A stretch of DNA of 64,000 nucleotides. Origin: a virus (taxonomy: Duplodnaviria; Caudoviricetes). The translations under genes and the position numbers were made by a program. The stretch is taken from positions 6,440 through 70,439 of IMG/VR virus record IMGVR_UViG_3300049370_000001. One strand, 5' to 3'. Position 1 is the stretch's first letter. Every line of letters begins with the position of its first letter. A model generated the notes under the pieces. It had not been told where the DNA came from. It made no database searches and saw only the letters and a list, made by a program, of their open reading frames with translations. Below, one piece after another: positions 2,192 to 49,131 of this stretch.

Positions 2192-3973
2192 TCAATGTGA
2201 AACTAAAGTGCGGTCATCAGGTAGAGATGCGAACAGGCGAGAGTTGCCGGTGGAGACGTAGACGCGATCACCAGCAGCCGAAGTGAGGATGCGCGATTCG
2301 CCATTGGCCGTGATCACGCGTGACTCGCCAAGCGAATCATAGACGCGCTCAATCTCAGCAACCGAGCCGCCAAACAGAACTATCTTTGCTGATCTCGTGG
2401 TAAGAGCGAAACTGCCAGACGTGACTGTAAAGACCCGACCATAAGGAAACTCTGCATCCTGACCGGTAACGAGGAACGTAGCCACGCTCGCGGGCATTAC
2501 GTTATGCGCTGCCTGGATCATCTCGACGGCAAAGCCCGTCAGCGCAAATGATCGAGTGTTGGCGTTGAGCAGCCGTTGGGCAGTCGGTGAGACGACGTTG
2601 CCCGTCAGGGTTATTGTGGCAACCGTCGCAGGCATGACCCGCGCTCGTGAAAAAGATGCGCCCTGAGCGGTTATGTCAAAGCTGACATAATCTGCGGTGA
2701 GCAGTCGACCACGATTTAGGCCGGTAGCATTTCCAGTGAGCGCAAACGATCCCTGGTTCGCCGCAATCGTCCGTGTGAGGCTGAAGGTCGTTGCGTTCCC
2801 GGTAAGTGAAAACGATCCAACCGTGGCATTAAGCTTTCGACCAAATAGCAACTCACTGCCATTCCCGGTCAGCATCAAGCTGCCATGCGTAACAGACAGC
2901 TTCCTGCCTGCCGTGAGACTTGTTCCGGTGCCAGTAAGACTGAAGTCCGCTTTTGTAGCCGTGAGGACACGAGTAGCTAAGAAGGTGGCGTTCTGACCGG
3001 ATAGCGCAAAACTGCCGGTCTCAACGTCGAAGTTCAGGGCTCCGCTCGGTGTGAAGGTCAGCTCGGCATCATTTCCGGTGAGACTAAAGCCTGCCTGGGC
3101 GGCACTGAGTAAACGATCGGCTTTCAGCCCGATGCTTTGTCCGGTGAACGTAAAGCTGCCGTGAGTGACGGTTAGCTTCCGCGCGGTCGTCAGCAAAATG
3201 GTGTTGCCAGACAAGGTGAAACCTGCCTGAGTCGTATTCAATAATCGCTGCGCGGTAAGCGTTGCGTCTTGGCCGGTCTCAATAAAGGTTCCAACCGAAA
3301 CATTGATCTTGAACCCTTTGGTCAGTTCAGCATTGTTGCCAGTCTCCGTAAACACGCCCGCTGAAACACTAAAGATTCGCGCTGCTTGTAATTGAACTGT
3401 CTGCCCCGAAAGCACAAATGATCCGGTCGAGGTAATGAGCGTAAAACCTTTGGTCAGAATCGCATCTTCGCCAGTTAATGCGAATGAAGATTGGGTGACC
3501 GAGATTTGTCGTTGCGCCGCGATTCCAGTGCTATTGCCAGTAAGCGCAAACGAGGCTTGGGTGGCATTGAGCTTATGGCCAAAGTACAGTCCCGCGTCAT
3601 TCCCTGTTTCGGTAAAAGCACCGTGATTAACAGAGAAGAGCCGAGCGTATTGAAGTGCGGTCGTGTTTCCGGTGAGAGTAAACGAAGCCTGTTGCGCAGA
3701 GATCGTACGCTGTGCGGTCAGGCCGGTAGCCTGTCCCGTTAAAGCGAACGAAGCCTGATCAGCGGTAAGCCTGTATCCTTTGCTTAATCCAGTCGCGTTT
3801 CCGGTCAGCGTGTAGCTTGATTGAGTTGCAGAGAGAGTACGAGCAGTCCTCAGCCCTGTCGCCGTGCCCGTCAGCGCAAAGGTGCTTACGGTAGCAGTGA
3901 GCGAATATGCGCTGAAGCGCGCCGCAATCTTAAATGGTGACTGCGGCGGAGGTGGAAGGTAAAAGATCGCCAT
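2192..3973 (-). CDS. Repeat-rich putative virion fibre protein
   Basis: 593 aa with many ~33-aa repeats containing (G/A)SF(A/T)LTG(N/Q); Thr/Gly/Ala-rich. Confidence 0.72.
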   Translation of the reverse strand: MAIFYLPPPPQSPFKIAARFSAYSLTATVSTFALTGTATGLRTARTLSATQSSYTLTGNATGLSKGYRLTADQASFALTGQATGLTAQRTISAQQASFTLTGNTTALQYARLFSVNHGAFTETGNDAGLYFGHKLNATQASFALTGNSTGIAAQRQISVTQSSFALTGEDAILTKGFTLITSTGSFVLSGQTVQLQAARIFSVSAGVFTETGNNAELTKGFKINVSVGTFIETGQDATLTAQRLLNTTQAGFTLSGNTILLTTARKLTVTHGSFTFTGQSIGLKADRLLSAAQAGFSLTGNDAELTFTPSGALNFDVETGSFALSGQNATFLATRVLTATKADFSLTGTGTSLTAGRKLSVTHGSLMLTGNGSELLFGRKLNATVGSFSLTGNATTFSLTRTIAANQGSFALTGNATGLNRGRLLTADYVSFDITAQGASFSRARVMPATVATITLTGNVVSPTAQRLLNANTRSFALTGFAVEMIQAAHNVMPASVATFLVTGQDAEFPYGRVFTVTSGSFALTTRSAKIVLFGGSVAEIERVYDSLGESRVITANGESRILTSAAGDRVYVSTGNSRLFASLPDDRTLVSH

Positions 3974-6233: not shown

Positions 6234-6479
6234 TCAGGATTTCGGCACAAGTGGGATTGAGGAACCGTAGTCGTAGTAACCAATCGGTTCGTCAAGGGTG
6301 GCGCTGTCCTTGTAAAGCGCGACACGAGCGGGAGGCGTTTCCACGTCTTCTTTTGTTTCAATTTCGATGAGTCGCAGACCGTAGGACCGCAATGCCGCTT
6401 TCAGAAAGCGATTCAGCCCGGCGCGCTTCTCTGCGTCATGGCTGGCGGTTGCTTTGAATGTGAGGACGTAGATCGTCAT
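6234..6479 (-). CDS. Hypothetical protein, C-terminus similar to 5707-6117 product
   Basis: VALYKD...IGYYDYGSSIPL resembles VVLYND...IGYYDYASSISL. Confidence 0.45.
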   Translation of the reverse strand: MTIYVLTFKATASHDAEKRAGLNRFLKAALRSYGLRLIEIETKEDVETPPARVALYKDSATLDEPIGYYDYGSSIPLVPKS

Positions 6480-44165: not shown

Positions 44166-44514
44166 ATGCCGTTCACTGAGTTATCACCGGAGCAACGAGC
44201 GAAACGTGAAGCGCAGATGTGGTTGAGCAAATAGGTATCGCTAACGTGCCCGAACTGTGGCAATCCTGATTGTATAGAGGCTCTTGCGTGGGTCAAGAAG
44301 ATCGAAACCCGATTAGCTGAGCACCAGCGTCTACAGTCAGCAATAGTCGAAGCCGCGATCGCGCGTAGAAAAGCGAAACTAGCAGAAGTCGGTGGTGCGG
44401 GCGATTACATCCAACTGCTTCACGCGGCGATGACCGCAGAACACGAAGCCGTTGACGCTCTTTATTGCTTTTGAAGCAGAGCACAAGATTGGAGATGGGA
44501 ATGAAGCCGATTGA
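44166..44514 (+). pseudogene. Hypothetical gene with in-frame TAG (44232) and apparent +1 insertion (~44462)
   Basis: MPFTELSPEQRAKREAQMWLSK*VSLTCPNCG...; the +1 frame ends IAFEAEHKIGDGNEAD-stop. Confidence 0.45.
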
Positions 44515-44948
44515 GAAATTACTCGACAACGAAGGCAAGGGCGTCTTGACCGCCGAGCTGAATCGCATCTTTATCGCGAACGGCTGTCAGCCAGCTTGTC
44601 ATATCTGTGGGAACAAGATTGCGATTGGCGACGAGCTGCATCTCAAGCCGTTTTTCGCGAAAACTGACCACAGTCACAGCATCGACGTGATGATTCTGTA
44701 TGAAGTGCAGCGATGCAAACCGCCGTCTGCCAGAGGGCGAGATGGATCGACTGCTCGACGTGGCGCACGAGCACGGTCTAGCTGTGACGAATCCAGAGCC
44801 GGATGATTCACTCGGGAAGGTGAAGCTCCATTCCGAGTACAGCACATCCTACAGCACGTCTACGCCGGGTCGTGCGCGGAGGTATGGGTTTGGTGGAGCG
44901 ATGGTTGTTCGCACCCCAGAGGGAATTGAGATTATCGGTGCCAAGTGA
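44501..44948 (+). pseudogene. Zn-finger gene split by apparent +1 insertion near 44695
   Basis: CHIC in frame 0 and CMKC in the +1 frame complete one Zn site; span is 3n+1. Confidence 0.55.
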
Positions 44949-44949
44949 G

Positions 44950-45072
44950 ATCGGAGTAGACCATGAGACTTCCCGACCTAAGAAGCGAATGAATGGGCGG
45001 TGATCGCCGCGCTGATTTCGTTGGCTGCGCTCGTAATTTATCAATGGCTGAATTGAATCGGAGTAGACCATG
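44950..45072. repeat. 16-bp direct repeat ATCGGAGTAGACCATG (SD plus ATG) flanking a mini-gene
   Basis: Identical at 44950-44965 and 45057-45072. Confidence 0.85.
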
Positions 45073-45447
45073 CCTGAGTCAACCAAGGAACTAAGTGGAA
45101 GAGAACTCAACTTTGCTATTGCCGAAAAGGTTATGGGCTGGAAGCGCGGAACGCGATACGGCAACGGTAACGGCGAATGGATCATCCCTGACCGGAAAGA
45201 GGTACTCCCGCTCACGTGGAGTCGGACGCCGCAATTCTGCGAATCTATTGAAGCCGCAATGCAAGTGGTAGCGAAGCTCGAAAAGGACAACATGATCTCG
45301 CTCACGCACTTTGCCAACTTACCGAGCGAAAGCAAGTGGATCGTCGCCCTCAGTTCATGTGCACCGGGATACATCGATGTGCGCGGCGAATCGGATACAT
45401 TGCCGGAAGCGATCTGTCGTGCTGCGTTAGCTGCTATTGGGGAGTAA
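45070..45447 (+). CDS. Phage ABA-sandwich-like protein
   Basis: ELN.AIAEKVMGW...P.FCESIEAAMQVV.KL...TLPEAICRAAL. Confidence 0.7.
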   Translation: MPESTKELSGRELNFAIAEKVMGWKRGTRYGNGNGEWIIPDRKEVLPLTWSRTPQFCESIEAAMQVVAKLEKDNMISLTHFANLPSESKWIVALSSCAPGYIDVRGESDTLPEAICRAALAAIGE

Positions 45448-45450
45448 AGA

Positions 45451-45672
45451 GTGGCATCTGGCAAAAAGCCTGAAGGTCCACGTGAGCGAGTAGAAGGTTT
45501 CGCAGCTCGACGCGGGGAAGATCCAGGAGAGTTTATTTCAATGGACCAGCTTACTGATGGTTATGTAAAAGTGAGGTTTCAGAATGCTACCTACTTCACA
45601 CCATTGAACGACAGAGTTGTTTATAAAGAAGGTAACGGCTATGAGCGGCCGACGCTAAGGAGGGCAGAGTGA
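45451..45672 (+). CDS. Hypothetical protein
   Basis: 73 aa ORF in operon. Confidence 0.45.
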   Translation: MASGKKPEGPRERVEGFAARRGEDPGEFISMDQLTDGYVKVRFQNATYFTPLNDRVVYKEGNGYERPTLRRAE

Positions 45673-45881
45673 GAGTCCAACTACCGTCAGGAGGGTTTGC
45701 AACGGTTTCGGCAAGCGTCACGCCCGAGACTCTCAAGGCGTTGGATGAAATGCTGGTAGCTGCCGCGAAGCAGTTTGCAAACGAATCGAAACGTGGGAGT
45801 GCGGAGCATGGGCCAGTCGCTAAACGCGACAGACCGGCTGGCCTTAGCTTTCGCCGTGCGGCGGGGAGTAAAGAGCGGTGA
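45669..45881 (+). CDS. Hypothetical protein
   Basis: 70 aa, GTGA coupling at both ends. Confidence 0.5.
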   Translation: MRVQLPSGGFATVSASVTPETLKALDEMLVAAAKQFANESKRGSAEHGPVAKRDRPAGLSFRRAAGSKER

Positions 45882-45922
45882 TCATCATCGGCATCGATCC
45901 AGGAATGGAGAAACCGTGGTAA
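45878..45922 (+). pseudogene. Original 5' stub of ruvC (MIIIGIDPG-MEKPW*)
   Basis: GTG ATC ATC ATC GGC ATC GAT CCA GGA duplicates the downstream ruvC N-terminus. Confidence 0.75.
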
Positions 45923-46488
45923 CTGAGGCCAGCAACCTGGAAACCGCTTCCCTATTGAGGCTCCCACTCGAAAGCCATCTCGCGTACTTAGCTGGACTGG
46001 TTGATGGTGAGGGCTATATCGGGATAGTGAGACGCGAAGCGTCACGTGTTAATAGACGCCTTAGCCCGAAACATACGGTCCGAATTTCGGTGGCCATGTG
46101 CGAGCGAGCGCCGTTGGACTTTATGTGCCACGTACTCATGTTGCCGATCGGAAAGTTTCGATTAAAAAGTCGCGGCAGAAAGGCTCACATCCACCGCGAT
46201 TGCTGGGTTATCGATCTCGAAAACGATCACGCGGCGGAAGTTGCCAAGTTGTTGGCCCCTTTCCTTCTAGTTAAGAGAAGACAGGCCCGTTTAGTTGTAG
46301 AGCTTCGACGTTTGCAGCGTTCAACCACAAAGCGTGACAGATCGGAACCGTCCAGCGTTTTGCAGTTCAAGGGCGGCGTTAATGCAGGACACGACTATGT
46401 TGTCAGGAAGACATCGGAGCAACACCTTGCCCTATGCGAAGCCATTTACCAAGAGTGCAAAGCCCTCAATAAGAGAGGGCCAAGATGA
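45916..46488 (+). CDS. LAGLIDADG homing endonuclease
   Basis: HLAYLAGLVDGEGYIGI, and LLAPFLLVKRRQA; SD GGAG then GTG 45916. Confidence 0.88.
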   Translation: MVTEASNLETASLLRLPLESHLAYLAGLVDGEGYIGIVRREASRVNRRLSPKHTVRISVAMCERAPLDFMCHVLMLPIGKFRLKSRGRKAHIHRDCWVIDLENDHAAEVAKLLAPFLLVKRRQARLVVELRRLQRSTTKRDRSEPSSVLQFKGGVNAGHDYVVRKTSEQHLALCEAIYQECKALNKRGPR

Positions 46489-47078
46489 TAATTCTCGGCA
46501 TCGACCCCGGCCAATCGGGCGGCATCGCCAAGCTGAAGCAAGACGGTGCGCACTGGTATCCGTCAGCGATCCCCATGCCATCAACTGAAGACGGCATAGC
46601 CGATTACCTGTGGACCATGCAAGAAGAGGCTCAGAAAGAAAAGATTGAGATCATCTGCTTTCTCGAACAGGTCCAGGTGATGCCCGCGATCCGGCGCGTC
46701 AAAGGTCCGAACGGTGAGAAGCGGGAAGAGGTAAACGCTGGCATCGTCAGCACAGCAAAGTTCATGCAGGGCTACGGCTTTCTGCGCGGCTGCTTGATCA
46801 CGATCGGCATGACGGTTGAAGACATCCGCCCGCAAGCCTGGCAGAAGCTTTTAGGCTGCATGACTCGCGGCAATAAGAACGTGAGCAAGGCGAAAGCACA
46901 GCAACTATTCCCGACGCTTCAGATTACACACAAGATCGCCGATGCCCTTTTGATAGCCGAAGCTGGCCGAAAGATCAGAATGGGGTTGAGCGCGGGAGCA
47001 TTATTCGACAAGAAAGCCTGGTGTTATGCCGTGGGAGAAAAACAGCGTGAAGCAAAAGCCAGAAAAGAAACGAAGTAA
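46485..47078 (+). CDS. ruvC: RuvC-like Holliday junction resolvase
   Basis: IILGIDPG, FLEQV, F..GYG, RPQAWQK, IADALLIA. Confidence 0.85.
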   Translation: MIILGIDPGQSGGIAKLKQDGAHWYPSAIPMPSTEDGIADYLWTMQEEAQKEKIEIICFLEQVQVMPAIRRVKGPNGEKREEVNAGIVSTAKFMQGYGFLRGCLITIGMTVEDIRPQAWQKLLGCMTRGNKNVSKAKAQQLFPTLQITHKIADALLIAEAGRKIRMGLSAGALFDKKAWCYAVGEKQREAKARKETK

Positions 47079-47178
47079 ACCACGCTCGCGCAAGGCGAAA
47101 CCAAAACCGGCGAAGCCTCCACGGATAAGACTCAACCATCTGCCGTACGCACCAAAGGAAGAATAGGAGCAAACAGCG

Positions 47179-47838
47179 GTGACCAAGACGTTGACAGAGT
47201 TCGAACCGATGTCTTTTGACGATCCGCGCGCAAAGACATTTCAATGTCCGCATTGCGACGCAAAACTGCAATTCAAGGTTCAAGTCGGTGTGTACGGCGT
47301 GTTCGAGATAAACGAAAACAACGAATTGGTTCCAAAACCGCCGCCTAAGCCAGCGCCGGCCAAAGACCGCTTCACGCGCCAAGAGCGGGCGCTGTTAGAG
47401 TCACTGAGAGAGGCGGGACTTTACACGGCCTTTGAAGCTGCTGCGCGCGCATCGCTCTACACCAACGCGAAGGATATGGAGCGTTACCTGTTGACGTTTC
47501 TCCAGAGCGCCGTGCCTGTGAAGACGCCGCAGTTCGCTATACGGCAATGCTTACCGGAGGACGAAGCCACCGGCGATCTCGAGTTGTGGCAGCTCAACAC
47601 GGTGACTGCCGTCATTGCGGACGGAGAAATTCGGGCCTTCTTTCCTGTTGATCTGATCAAGGGACGTCCGTTGCGGACAAAGCTTCAGAGCAACGGGAAA
47701 ACAATTACCGCGGAAAAAGAGACGATAACCGTCAGCGATTGGGTGAGGACGCGAAACGGCTACGTCGCAGGACGCGGGCTGCTGTTCAAGGAGCTCCGCG
47801 GCAAGGCTGCCGGAGCTTTCGCTAACACAGGAATCTGA
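47179..47838 (+). CDS. Hypothetical protein with N-terminal CPHC
   Basis: 219 aa, SD AGGAG. Confidence 0.65.
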   Translation: MTKTLTEFEPMSFDDPRAKTFQCPHCDAKLQFKVQVGVYGVFEINENNELVPKPPPKPAPAKDRFTRQERALLESLREAGLYTAFEAAARASLYTNAKDMERYLLTFLQSAVPVKTPQFAIRQCLPEDEATGDLELWQLNTVTAVIADGEIRAFFPVDLIKGRPLRTKLQSNGKTITAEKETITVSDWVRTRNGYVAGRGLLFKELRGKAAGAFANTGI

Positions 47839-48026
47839 TGCCGCACACTCACGCACCAAGAGGGAAACGGATCAGAGTCGTCTTAAAGGACGGTTCAGTA
47901 TTCGTTGACAAGTTTATCGAGCATCGGTCGCGTGATGTCGTGTTTAAGGAAAGAACAGTAGCACTAAGTTTGATTAAGTCGTTTTCGATCTGGCGTACAC
48001 CGCCATATGAAATGAAAGGGAGTTGA
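47838..48026 (+). CDS. Small conserved phage protein
   Basis: HTHAPRGKRIRVVLKDG..FVDKF. Confidence 0.6.
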   Translation: MPHTHAPRGKRIRVVLKDGSVFVDKFIEHRSRDVVFKERTVALSLIKSFSIWRTPPYEMKGS

Positions 48027-48027
48027 G

Positions 48028-49131
48028 TTGAGCGAAACATCATCAAATCTGTCCTTGAACCTGTCGCACACGGCCCTGTGGTTCGCCATGAGTGCGGCGC
48101 GCGTCTCGGGTCTTAACTCAGTTGTCAATGAATCTTGGGTATCCGATGCGGGATCGCTGGATGGCGTAATGAAGCGCTTTATTGGCGACGCTGGCGAGTT
48201 GATCTTTGAAGACTTGCGGCCCTCGTCTGGGTATCACGAAGCGGTGTTCAGATCAGCGGCAACGCTCCTGCGCGTGTCTAAAGAGAGGCGGGATTTTAAC
48301 TGCTCGATCTTTAGCGCGAGTTTGCTGGACGCTGAACAGACGCTTGATGAATTGCGCCGAATGCTCCCGCCGGCTGAGCGCAAACAAAAACTGTTAGACG
48401 TAACGTTCTGGTACTCAACCGCGAACGGCCCACGTCGATATGATCGACAACTCCAAGCGCCGGGATGGAAAGAGATCGAAGCTAACTATCCAGTCACCAC
48501 GCGGGAGAAACTCGCCAGCCTGCAAGCCGTCGAACTAGCCGAAGGTTCGGGCAAGTTAATCCTATGGCAAGGTGAACCCGGCACAGGGAAGACCTTCGCA
48601 CTTCGGGCGCTTGGCGAGGAATGGGCCTCGTGGTGCCGCATTCACTACGTGCTTGACCCGGAGAGGTTTTTTACAGAAGGCTACTATCTGCTCAACGTTA
48701 TTCTCGAAGAAGAAAGCGGCGCGTCTCGCTTGCTTGGCGGCCCGAACGGCACAACCGATACTAGGCCAACGTGGCGATTGATTGTCTTAGAAGACGCGGG
48801 CGAGATGTTGGCAAAGGATGCCAAGTTGCAAGTTGGACAGGGACTCGCCCGATTACTAAACCTCTGTGACGGTCTACTTGGTCAAGGCTTGCGTGTCTTG
48901 GTTCTAATCACAACAAACGAGCAAGTCGGAACACTTCACGCTGCCGTGTCGCGTCCCGGACGCTGCTTGTCTCAGATCGTCTTCGAGAAGTTCGATGTCG
49001 CAAGCGCAAATCAATGGCTACGCGAACACGGGTCAGAAACCTCAGTAATCAAAAGCGCCGCCCTCGCAGATCTGTATGCGCTCGCACATGGCGTGCAGAT
49101 TCCAGAACGACAAGTTGCCGGATTCAAGTAG
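48028..49131 (+). CDS. AAA+ ATPase (DUF5925-associated type)
   Basis: Walker A GEPGTGKT, Walker B IVLED, LLNLCDGLLGQG, TTN, RPGR. Confidence 0.85.
   Translation: MSETSSNLSLNLSHTALWFAMSAARVSGLNSVVNESWVSDAGSLDGVMKRFIGDAGELIFEDLRPSSGYHEAVFRSAATLLRVSKERRDFNCSIFSASLLDAEQTLDELRRMLPPAERKQKLLDVTFWYSTANGPRRYDRQLQAPGWKEIEANYPVTTREKLASLQAVELAEGSGKLILWQGEPGTGKTFALRALGEEWASWCRIHYVLDPERFFTEGYYLLNVILEEESGASRLLGGPNGTTDTRPTWRLIVLEDAGEMLAKDAKLQVGQGLARLLNLCDGLLGQGLRVLVLITTNEQVGTLHAAVSRPGRCLSQIVFEKFDVASANQWLREHGSETSVIKSAALADLYALAHGVQIPERQVAGFK

Follow-up and report, generated by a model that had tools for sequence, protein, structure and literature searches.

The closest described counterparts of the locus analysed here are the mORFs of fungal mitochondria, first described in atp6 of Allomyces macrogynus and later in atp6, atp9, cox2 and nad3 of Glomus, which mostly encode LAGLIDADG endonucleases and bring along a C-terminal gene end of foreign origin, with the native end left behind downstream (PMC3630166). 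In T4-like phages, free-standing homing endonuclease genes (HEGs) such as seg and mob are intergenic, cut a neighbouring gene and home without an intron, and gene-splitting HEGs have been described as well, namely mobE in nrdA of Aeh1 and mobA in gene 60 of T4 (PMC2988022). Here we analyse a 64,000-nucleotide (nt) stretch of DNA (the window; positions 6,440 to 70,439 of IMG/VR virus record IMGVR_UViG_3300049370_000001), part of a complete 70,439-bp record of a soil phage with terminal repeats, in which an I-CreI-like HEG stands immediately 5′ of ruvC, the gene of a Holliday-junction resolvase. In our view it is likely that the arrival of this HEG duplicated the first 30 nt of ruvC (its head) and thereby imported a head from a different allele.

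The window displays the hallmark of a mORF, a HEG with the remnant of a native gene end on one side and a carried copy of that end on the other, both absent from relatives. As in mORFs, an intronless endonuclease open reading frame (ORF) sits in a protein gene and is joined to a foreign version of the gene end that was displaced; in mORFs the native remnant resembles relatives more than the carried end does, and in the window a 27-nt comparison leans the same way. Whereas mORFs replace the 3′ end of a gene and leave the remnant downstream, the element of the window replaces the 5′ end along with the ribosome-binding site and start codon, and leaves upstream a remnant that looks like a short translated ORF; the duplicated part is just 30 nt, unlike in mORFs, and the host is a tailed soil phage rather than an organelle. 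The element is therefore a phage counterpart, at the 5′ end, of the mitochondrial mORFs, with a layout that is hardly documented in phages.

Like the seg and mob HEGs, the HEG of the window lies between genes, would be expected to cut inside a conserved neighbour and to spread together with flanking DNA through recombination in mixed infection, but the seg and mob enzymes are of the GIY-YIG or HNH type, whereas this one is a LAGLIDADG enzyme, and no flanking target-gene remnant is described for them in PMC2988022, whereas the window has one. With mobE and mobA it shares an intronless landing in a functionally critical coding region; those HEGs leave their gene in two pieces that need reassembly, whereas ruvC is whole in the window through its duplicated head. 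In the literature we found no phage case that combines a stranded gene head with a replacement head.

A sequence-only reading of this DNA had described an upstream gene coupled through a GTGA overlap to a stub that repeats the start of ruvC, followed by a LAGLIDADG ORF coupled through an ATGA overlap to a complete ruvC. Direct reading of positions 45000–48000 confirmed this anatomy of stub, endonuclease and complete ruvC, with four reading frames chained by overlaps (Table 1). The GTG of the stub overlaps the TGA of the resident upstream gene (GTGA), and the stub translates as MIIIGIDPGM followed by four unrelated codons and a TAA; the HEG runs in another frame, its GTG lying four bases before the stub stop, and its own TGA overlaps the ATG of ruvC at 46485 (ATGA), the product of which begins MIILGIDPGQ. 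The stub breaks directly after the catalytic GIDPG codons of ruvC, which is where the insertion had been placed.

Past the start codon, 8 of 9 residues are the same in the two ruvC heads, as are 20 of their first 27 nt; in five of the eight internal codons the difference is confined to the wobble position, and at codon 10 the stub has Met where the full ruvC has Gln. A repeat search returns the pair as a direct repeat of 25 nt (80% identity, spacing 607 nt), and the insert as a whole is bracketed by imperfect 30-nt direct repeats. A flank-versus-flank tblastn also recovers the head pair (E 0.003–0.004), and a six-frame search of the 64-kb window finds the motif hydrophobic-G-[IVL]-DPG at these two heads only. 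The HEG ORF fills the insert, with 8 nt left before it and 0 after it, and a promoter and terminator scan of the plus strand near the insert gave nothing beyond shuffle expectation.

The 190-amino-acid (aa) product of the HEG has no Pfam match and aligns over its full length with I-CreI and engineered variants in a phmmer search of the PDB. A profile of 11 HEG family members finds I-CreI (E 3.5e-9), and 7 of the 11 aligned relatives match PF00961 (LAGLIDADG_1). The AlphaFold model (pLDDT 82.6) adopts an alpha-beta-beta-alpha-beta-beta-alpha fold, for which the best Foldseek matches in the PDB are I-CvuI, I-MsoI and I-CreI (E about 5e-7; TM 0.65–0.74 by target). The LAGLIDADG motif, at residues 25–33 with a Glu at the catalytic position, is invariant in the 11 family members, and so across the family is the Lys aligned with K98 of I-CreI. 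Judged by profile, motif and predicted fold, the protein is a single-motif LAGLIDADG enzyme of the I-CreI type, in agreement with the sequence-only reading, and because it belongs to a single-motif enzyme family it presumably acts as a homodimer. In fold, motif and length it resembles I-CreI, I-MsoI and I-CvuI, with which it shares 16–20% sequence identity and relative to which it has an additional N-terminal helix of ~17 residues; unlike its own gene, theirs lie inside group I introns of algal chloroplast rRNA genes.

The 197-aa product of the downstream gene matches phrog_1770 (Holliday-junction resolvase; E 4.9e-20) and structures of MOC1, a RuvC-family chloroplast resolvase (E 7e-6 by sequence, 1.2e-7 by profile), and has no Pfam match. 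Residues D7 (in GIDPG), E61, H149 and D153 are invariant in 34 resolvase homologs. These matches and the conserved catalytic residues identify the gene as a complete RuvC-type resolvase gene.

Two further features of ruvC were observed. Compared with all relatives, the ruvC of the window has one extra base near 47010 (regions 46995–47078 and 47026–47166), which may be genuine or an assembly error; the conserved C-terminal Pro-Trp tail is thus out of frame and a longer, Lys-rich tail takes its place, with the catalytic core untouched. In the middle of the protein (residues about 60–97), two sharply different allele types are shuffled among close relatives, and P0007 combines a window-type N-terminus with the other type of middle segment, a pattern that indicates frequent recombination within ruvC.

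Close relatives of the resolvase were drawn from viral contigs, metagenomes and assemblies. Whether HEG-less relatives carry the duplicated stub was a check that the sequence-only reading had proposed, and they do not: each of the 21 distinct HEG-less 5′ ends shows one head only, with no stub and no LAGLIDADG gene or motif nearby. In L096, which encodes resolvase P0005 (88% identical), an uninterrupted ruvC begins 3 nt downstream of a homolog of the 70-aa upstream ORF, and this locus aligns twice to the window, with 636–664 matching the stub (45879–45907; 86%, 29 nt) and 632–1201 matching 46482–47050. In L013, a homolog of the next gene upstream (45451–45672) is GTGA-coupled directly to ruvC. 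Together, the uninterrupted genes of L096 and L013 define the 577-nt insert (Table 1).

Upstream of ruvC, the genes vary by relative, being a methylase, a Sequestin-like ORF or unrelated ORFs of 60, 70 and 73 aa. A scan of viral contigs with the 70-aa ORF gave no relative, and its homologs P0132 and P0133 came from the exhaustive HMMER search only; both are encoded directly 5′ of a resolvase gene, which is RuvC in L096 and RusA in L095. As a separate observation on this position, the closest homolog of the 70-aa ORF (75%) is ATGA-coupled to the RusA resolvase gene in L095 (457–1094), so that RusA stands for RuvC in a non-orthologous resolvase swap. A 151-nt contig of soil run X1 follows the window up to 45873 and then continues as a RusA-like start, and a phage of this kind therefore coexists in the same soil sample.

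A probable second instance of the layout lies at P0122, which is 72% identical to the endonuclease over its full length and is its only close relative among 5.8 billion proteins; a viral-contig scan with P0122 returned distant relatives only. Its gene is flanked by a DNA methylase gene and a cut gene on a 2,236-nt ENA contig of sample ERZ27265651, and the genomic background differs from that of the window; a protein search for the cut gene downstream returned nothing from that contig. The start of the window HEG aligns with Met21 of P0122, and the called P0122 product extends beyond both ends of the family core. The flanks of P0122 were tested from the protein alone, by back-translation with dynamic programming. 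In methylase-preceded ruvC genes (L001:2902–3561, L002:2908–3564, L015, L016 and L018), the resolvase carries a conserved N-terminal extension of ~33 aa that contains WLANY, and Leu or Thr takes the place of the usual start codon. The +1 frame of the P0122 leader could encode this WLANY extension of methylase-linked phages and, after it, the beginning of a ruvC-like sequence interrupted after some five codons. In the +1 frame of the tail, a head of the form start-I-I-L-G-I can be accommodated from contig nt 1868 onwards; position 1958, where the next called gene begins, is exactly codon 31, a nearly invariant Met. Shuffled P0122 proteins met the leader and tail patterns in 12 and 7 of 20,000 cases, respectively.

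The layout of stub, HEG and head is thus very probably present at P0122 in a different background. Codons 2–3 of the P0122 head, if they encode Ile-Ile, are forced to ATA ATT, the same as in the window, and this codon pair occurs in 0 of the 21 HEG-less alleles. The stub predicted at P0122 is of its own background's type and has a different left breakpoint, while the right junction is the same as in the window. A shared right junction, a background-type stub and, if present, the ATA ATT pair would point to a head that travels with the HEG and a stub that is made anew at each entry.

Additionally, the left and right flanks of distant members of the HEG family (24–38% identity, from viral contigs) were compared with each other, which brought up three loci with the same layout at N6_N4 DNA methyltransferase genes, L113, L099 and L097 (Table 1). 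HEG-free methyltransferase homologs (n = 18) have an uninterrupted SPPYWGLRDYG and no small insertions. In the second head copy of L113, a 6-nt insertion with an in-frame TAG stands right after the Trp codon of SPPYW, and in L097 and L099 a 5-nt insertion causes a frameshift at the same point; the methyltransferase may therefore be split or dead at all three loci. The right junction is imprecise at the methyltransferase loci, whereas that of the window is seamless.

The provenance of the two ruvC heads can be compared against L007, whose gene body is the closest of any relative (93% aa identity). The stub matches it in 24 of 27 nt, as expected at a body identity of ~85–90%, and the working head in 19 of 27 (binomial P 0.012, taking the remainder of the gene as 88% identical). 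Because the stub is nearer to L007 than the working head is, these figures fit a stub that is the resident head and a working head that arrived with the HEG, in line with the earlier claim that the element supplies a replacement 5′ end.

Our preferred reading would run as follows. The enzyme would cut a HEG-less ruvC near codons 10–11 (near nt 30), just past the GIDPG codons. On the right side, the break would be repaired from a HEG-bearing donor by ruvC homology, with the donor head and the HEG copied in; on the left side homology would be lacking, because the genes 5′ of ruvC differ between phages, and the broken end would be joined non-homologously just 5′ of the HEG, stranding the resident head. 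One-sided repair of this kind would account for the stranding of the resident head as well as for a left breakpoint that varies, and the allele now present would be immune to the enzyme. The working ruvC would start from a ribosome-binding site inside the HEG 3′ end together with the ATGA overlap, and the stub probably serves as a short relay ORF in a chain from the upstream gene through the stub and the HEG to ruvC. Of the intragenic homing that the sequence-only reading had proposed, the entry footprint in ruvC stands; the HEG, however, is now in effect free-standing and intergenic, between the scar and the complete gene, which is the usual place for phage HEGs.

Several observations weigh against this reading or limit its reach. 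The breakpoint is the sole guide to the cut site, and the left junction could equally have arisen by a later deletion within a longer duplication. The head comparison covers 27 nt only, in a mosaic gene, which makes for weak statistics, and segment-wise identity to 16 relatives is itself mosaic, with no clean boundary of a co-conversion tract. The G+C content of the HEG is ordinary for the genome, so composition gives no foreign mark. The layout at P0122 was read from a back-translated protein and not from DNA. Finally, a HEG-less allele was not seen in the sole run that holds the phage, which yielded one contig and no joint that skips the insert.

The differences between the heads had been interpreted in the sequence-only reading as recoding that would also make the supplied 5′ end resistant to its own nuclease, an interpretation that our findings do not support. 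The similarity of the two heads falls within the natural inter-allele range (16–24 of 27 nt), a 17-nt block of the working head (codons 10 to 16, including the Gln-10 codon) is identical in the HEG-less L093, and L094, likewise HEG-less, also has Gln-10. Because the 17-nt block recurs exactly in L093, the differences look like ordinary allelic divergence, for which a donor allele is a simpler source than adaptive recoding. The same findings argue against the rival that survives best, although we consider it unlikely, namely that the HEG and its head form an adapted mobile unit in which the head was recoded for immunity, at wobble positions and from Met-10 to Gln, and in which intragenic insertion is the rule rather than a by-product of one-sided repair. 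Such a unit would be in keeping with the apparent co-inheritance of the head and the HEG 3′ end in the window and at P0122, with a breakpoint at codons 10–11, the least conserved of the otherwise conserved ruvC 5′ block, and with the small insertions found exactly at the presumed cut site in the methyltransferase-linked relatives.

Variability at codons 10–11 is compatible with escape of the target site, and equally with a structurally free residue. Codon 10 is the most variable position of the GIDPGxSGG block (46512–46517), with Met, Gln, Val, Leu, Ala and Lys among 21 relatives, and Ile is also present in the protein alignment. A test of target palindromy in L096 and L008 placed the best centre exactly at nt 30 with 7 of 11 pairs, and shuffles reached at least 7 pairs in about half of the trials, so this is no evidence.

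Less probable still is that the locus is a decaying relic, in which the HEG is immobile and the stub owes its origin to some local duplication or rearrangement with no connection to homing. The scarcity of the element, with just two close copies among the proteins searched, and a sample without a visible HEG-less allele would suit such a relic, but against it stand an intact HEG ORF, a motif and a K98-equivalent Lys that do not vary within the family, and two copies that remain similar over their full length in different genomic backgrounds. The two heads are also different alleles, hence not the outcome of a recent local duplication.

We give almost no credence to an intron, an intein or a translational bypass that would join the stub to the rest of ruvC, even though the stub ends exactly where the frame would need rejoining. 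A permissive Rfam scan of 44500–48500 (E up to 1) found no intron family, the HEG ORF occupies the insert and leaves almost no non-coding DNA, and the stub TAA together with a HEG in a different frame excludes an intein. Splicing is unnecessary because the insert is followed by an entire ruvC that has a start and a ribosome-binding site of its own, in agreement with the splice-free character claimed for the locus. An assembly artefact fusing two strains, which a metagenome assembly with related phages in the same sample might invite, is just as hard to credit given coherent coupled overlaps at all three junctions, the probable second instance at P0122 and a separate Logan assembly, in which a 21.5-kb contig of a soil-metagenome run spans this whole stretch with zero differences, no variants and a depth of ~306, although this run may be the window's own source and its reads the same, and is hence not independent.

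Table 1. Features of the ruvC locus in the window and of the methyltransferase loci with the same layout; coordinates of the last three rows refer to the loci named.
Feature	Coordinates	Strand	Evidence or remark
Resident upstream gene, 70 aa, no known family	45669..45881	+	TGA overlaps stub GTG at 45878
Stub ORF, 14 codons (ten of ruvC and four from the insert), ends in TAA	45878..45922	+	
Left copy of ruvC nt 1–30; resident head, remnant	45878..45907	+	86% to L096 ruvC nt 2–30; 24/27 nt to L007; direct repeat D1
Putative Shine-Dalgarno-like GGAG, 5 nt 5′ of HEG start	45907..45910	+	Read from the sequence
Inserted DNA, 577 nt, missing from HEG-less relatives	45908..46484	+	blastn of L096 and L013 against the window
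Free-standing single-motif LAGLIDADG HEG, 190 aa, GTG start	45916..46488	+	I-CreI-type matches; AlphaFold/Foldseek
Putative Shine-Dalgarno-like GAGAGGG for ruvC, inside HEG 3′ end	46473..46479	+	Six bases upstream
Right copy of ruvC nt 1–30; working-gene head linked to HEG	46485..46514	+	Repeat; 19/27 nt to L007
Complete RuvC-type (MOC1-like) Holliday-junction resolvase gene, 197 aa	46485..47078	+	phrog_1770; MOC1 structures
L113, methyltransferase locus	2866–3560		Stub broken inside catalytic SPPY, then HEG, then G+C-richer second head copy
L099, methyltransferase locus	2800–3600	minus	Same layout; HEG antisense to methyltransferase gene
L097 (same contig as L010), methyltransferase locus	2700–3700	minus	Same layout; HEG antisense to methyltransferase gene

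It is tempting to extend the favoured reading, in which the HEG arrived with a foreign ruvC head, to the HEG family as a whole, and we do so tentatively, as a possibility that we would not yet back. Under such a splice-free head replacement, each element would carry the 5′ end of its target gene up to the cut site, enter at catalytic-motif codons (GIDPG of ruvC, SPPY of the methyltransferases) and leave a datable scar, and the variability of codon 10 would be the trace of an arms race.

For the biology of the phage, the locus means that a phage gene can receive an intronless HEG in its catalytic region and come to no harm, mirroring at the 5′ end what mORFs do in mitochondria. If the stub is the footprint of HEG entry, recognition and cutting are predicted at codons 8–12 of ruvC, in Met-10 alleles. 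A signature of gene head, HEG and gene head would help to find new meganucleases along with their natural targets, and if the layout is general for this HEG family, it would explain part of the mosaic allele structure at the conserved starts of phage genes.

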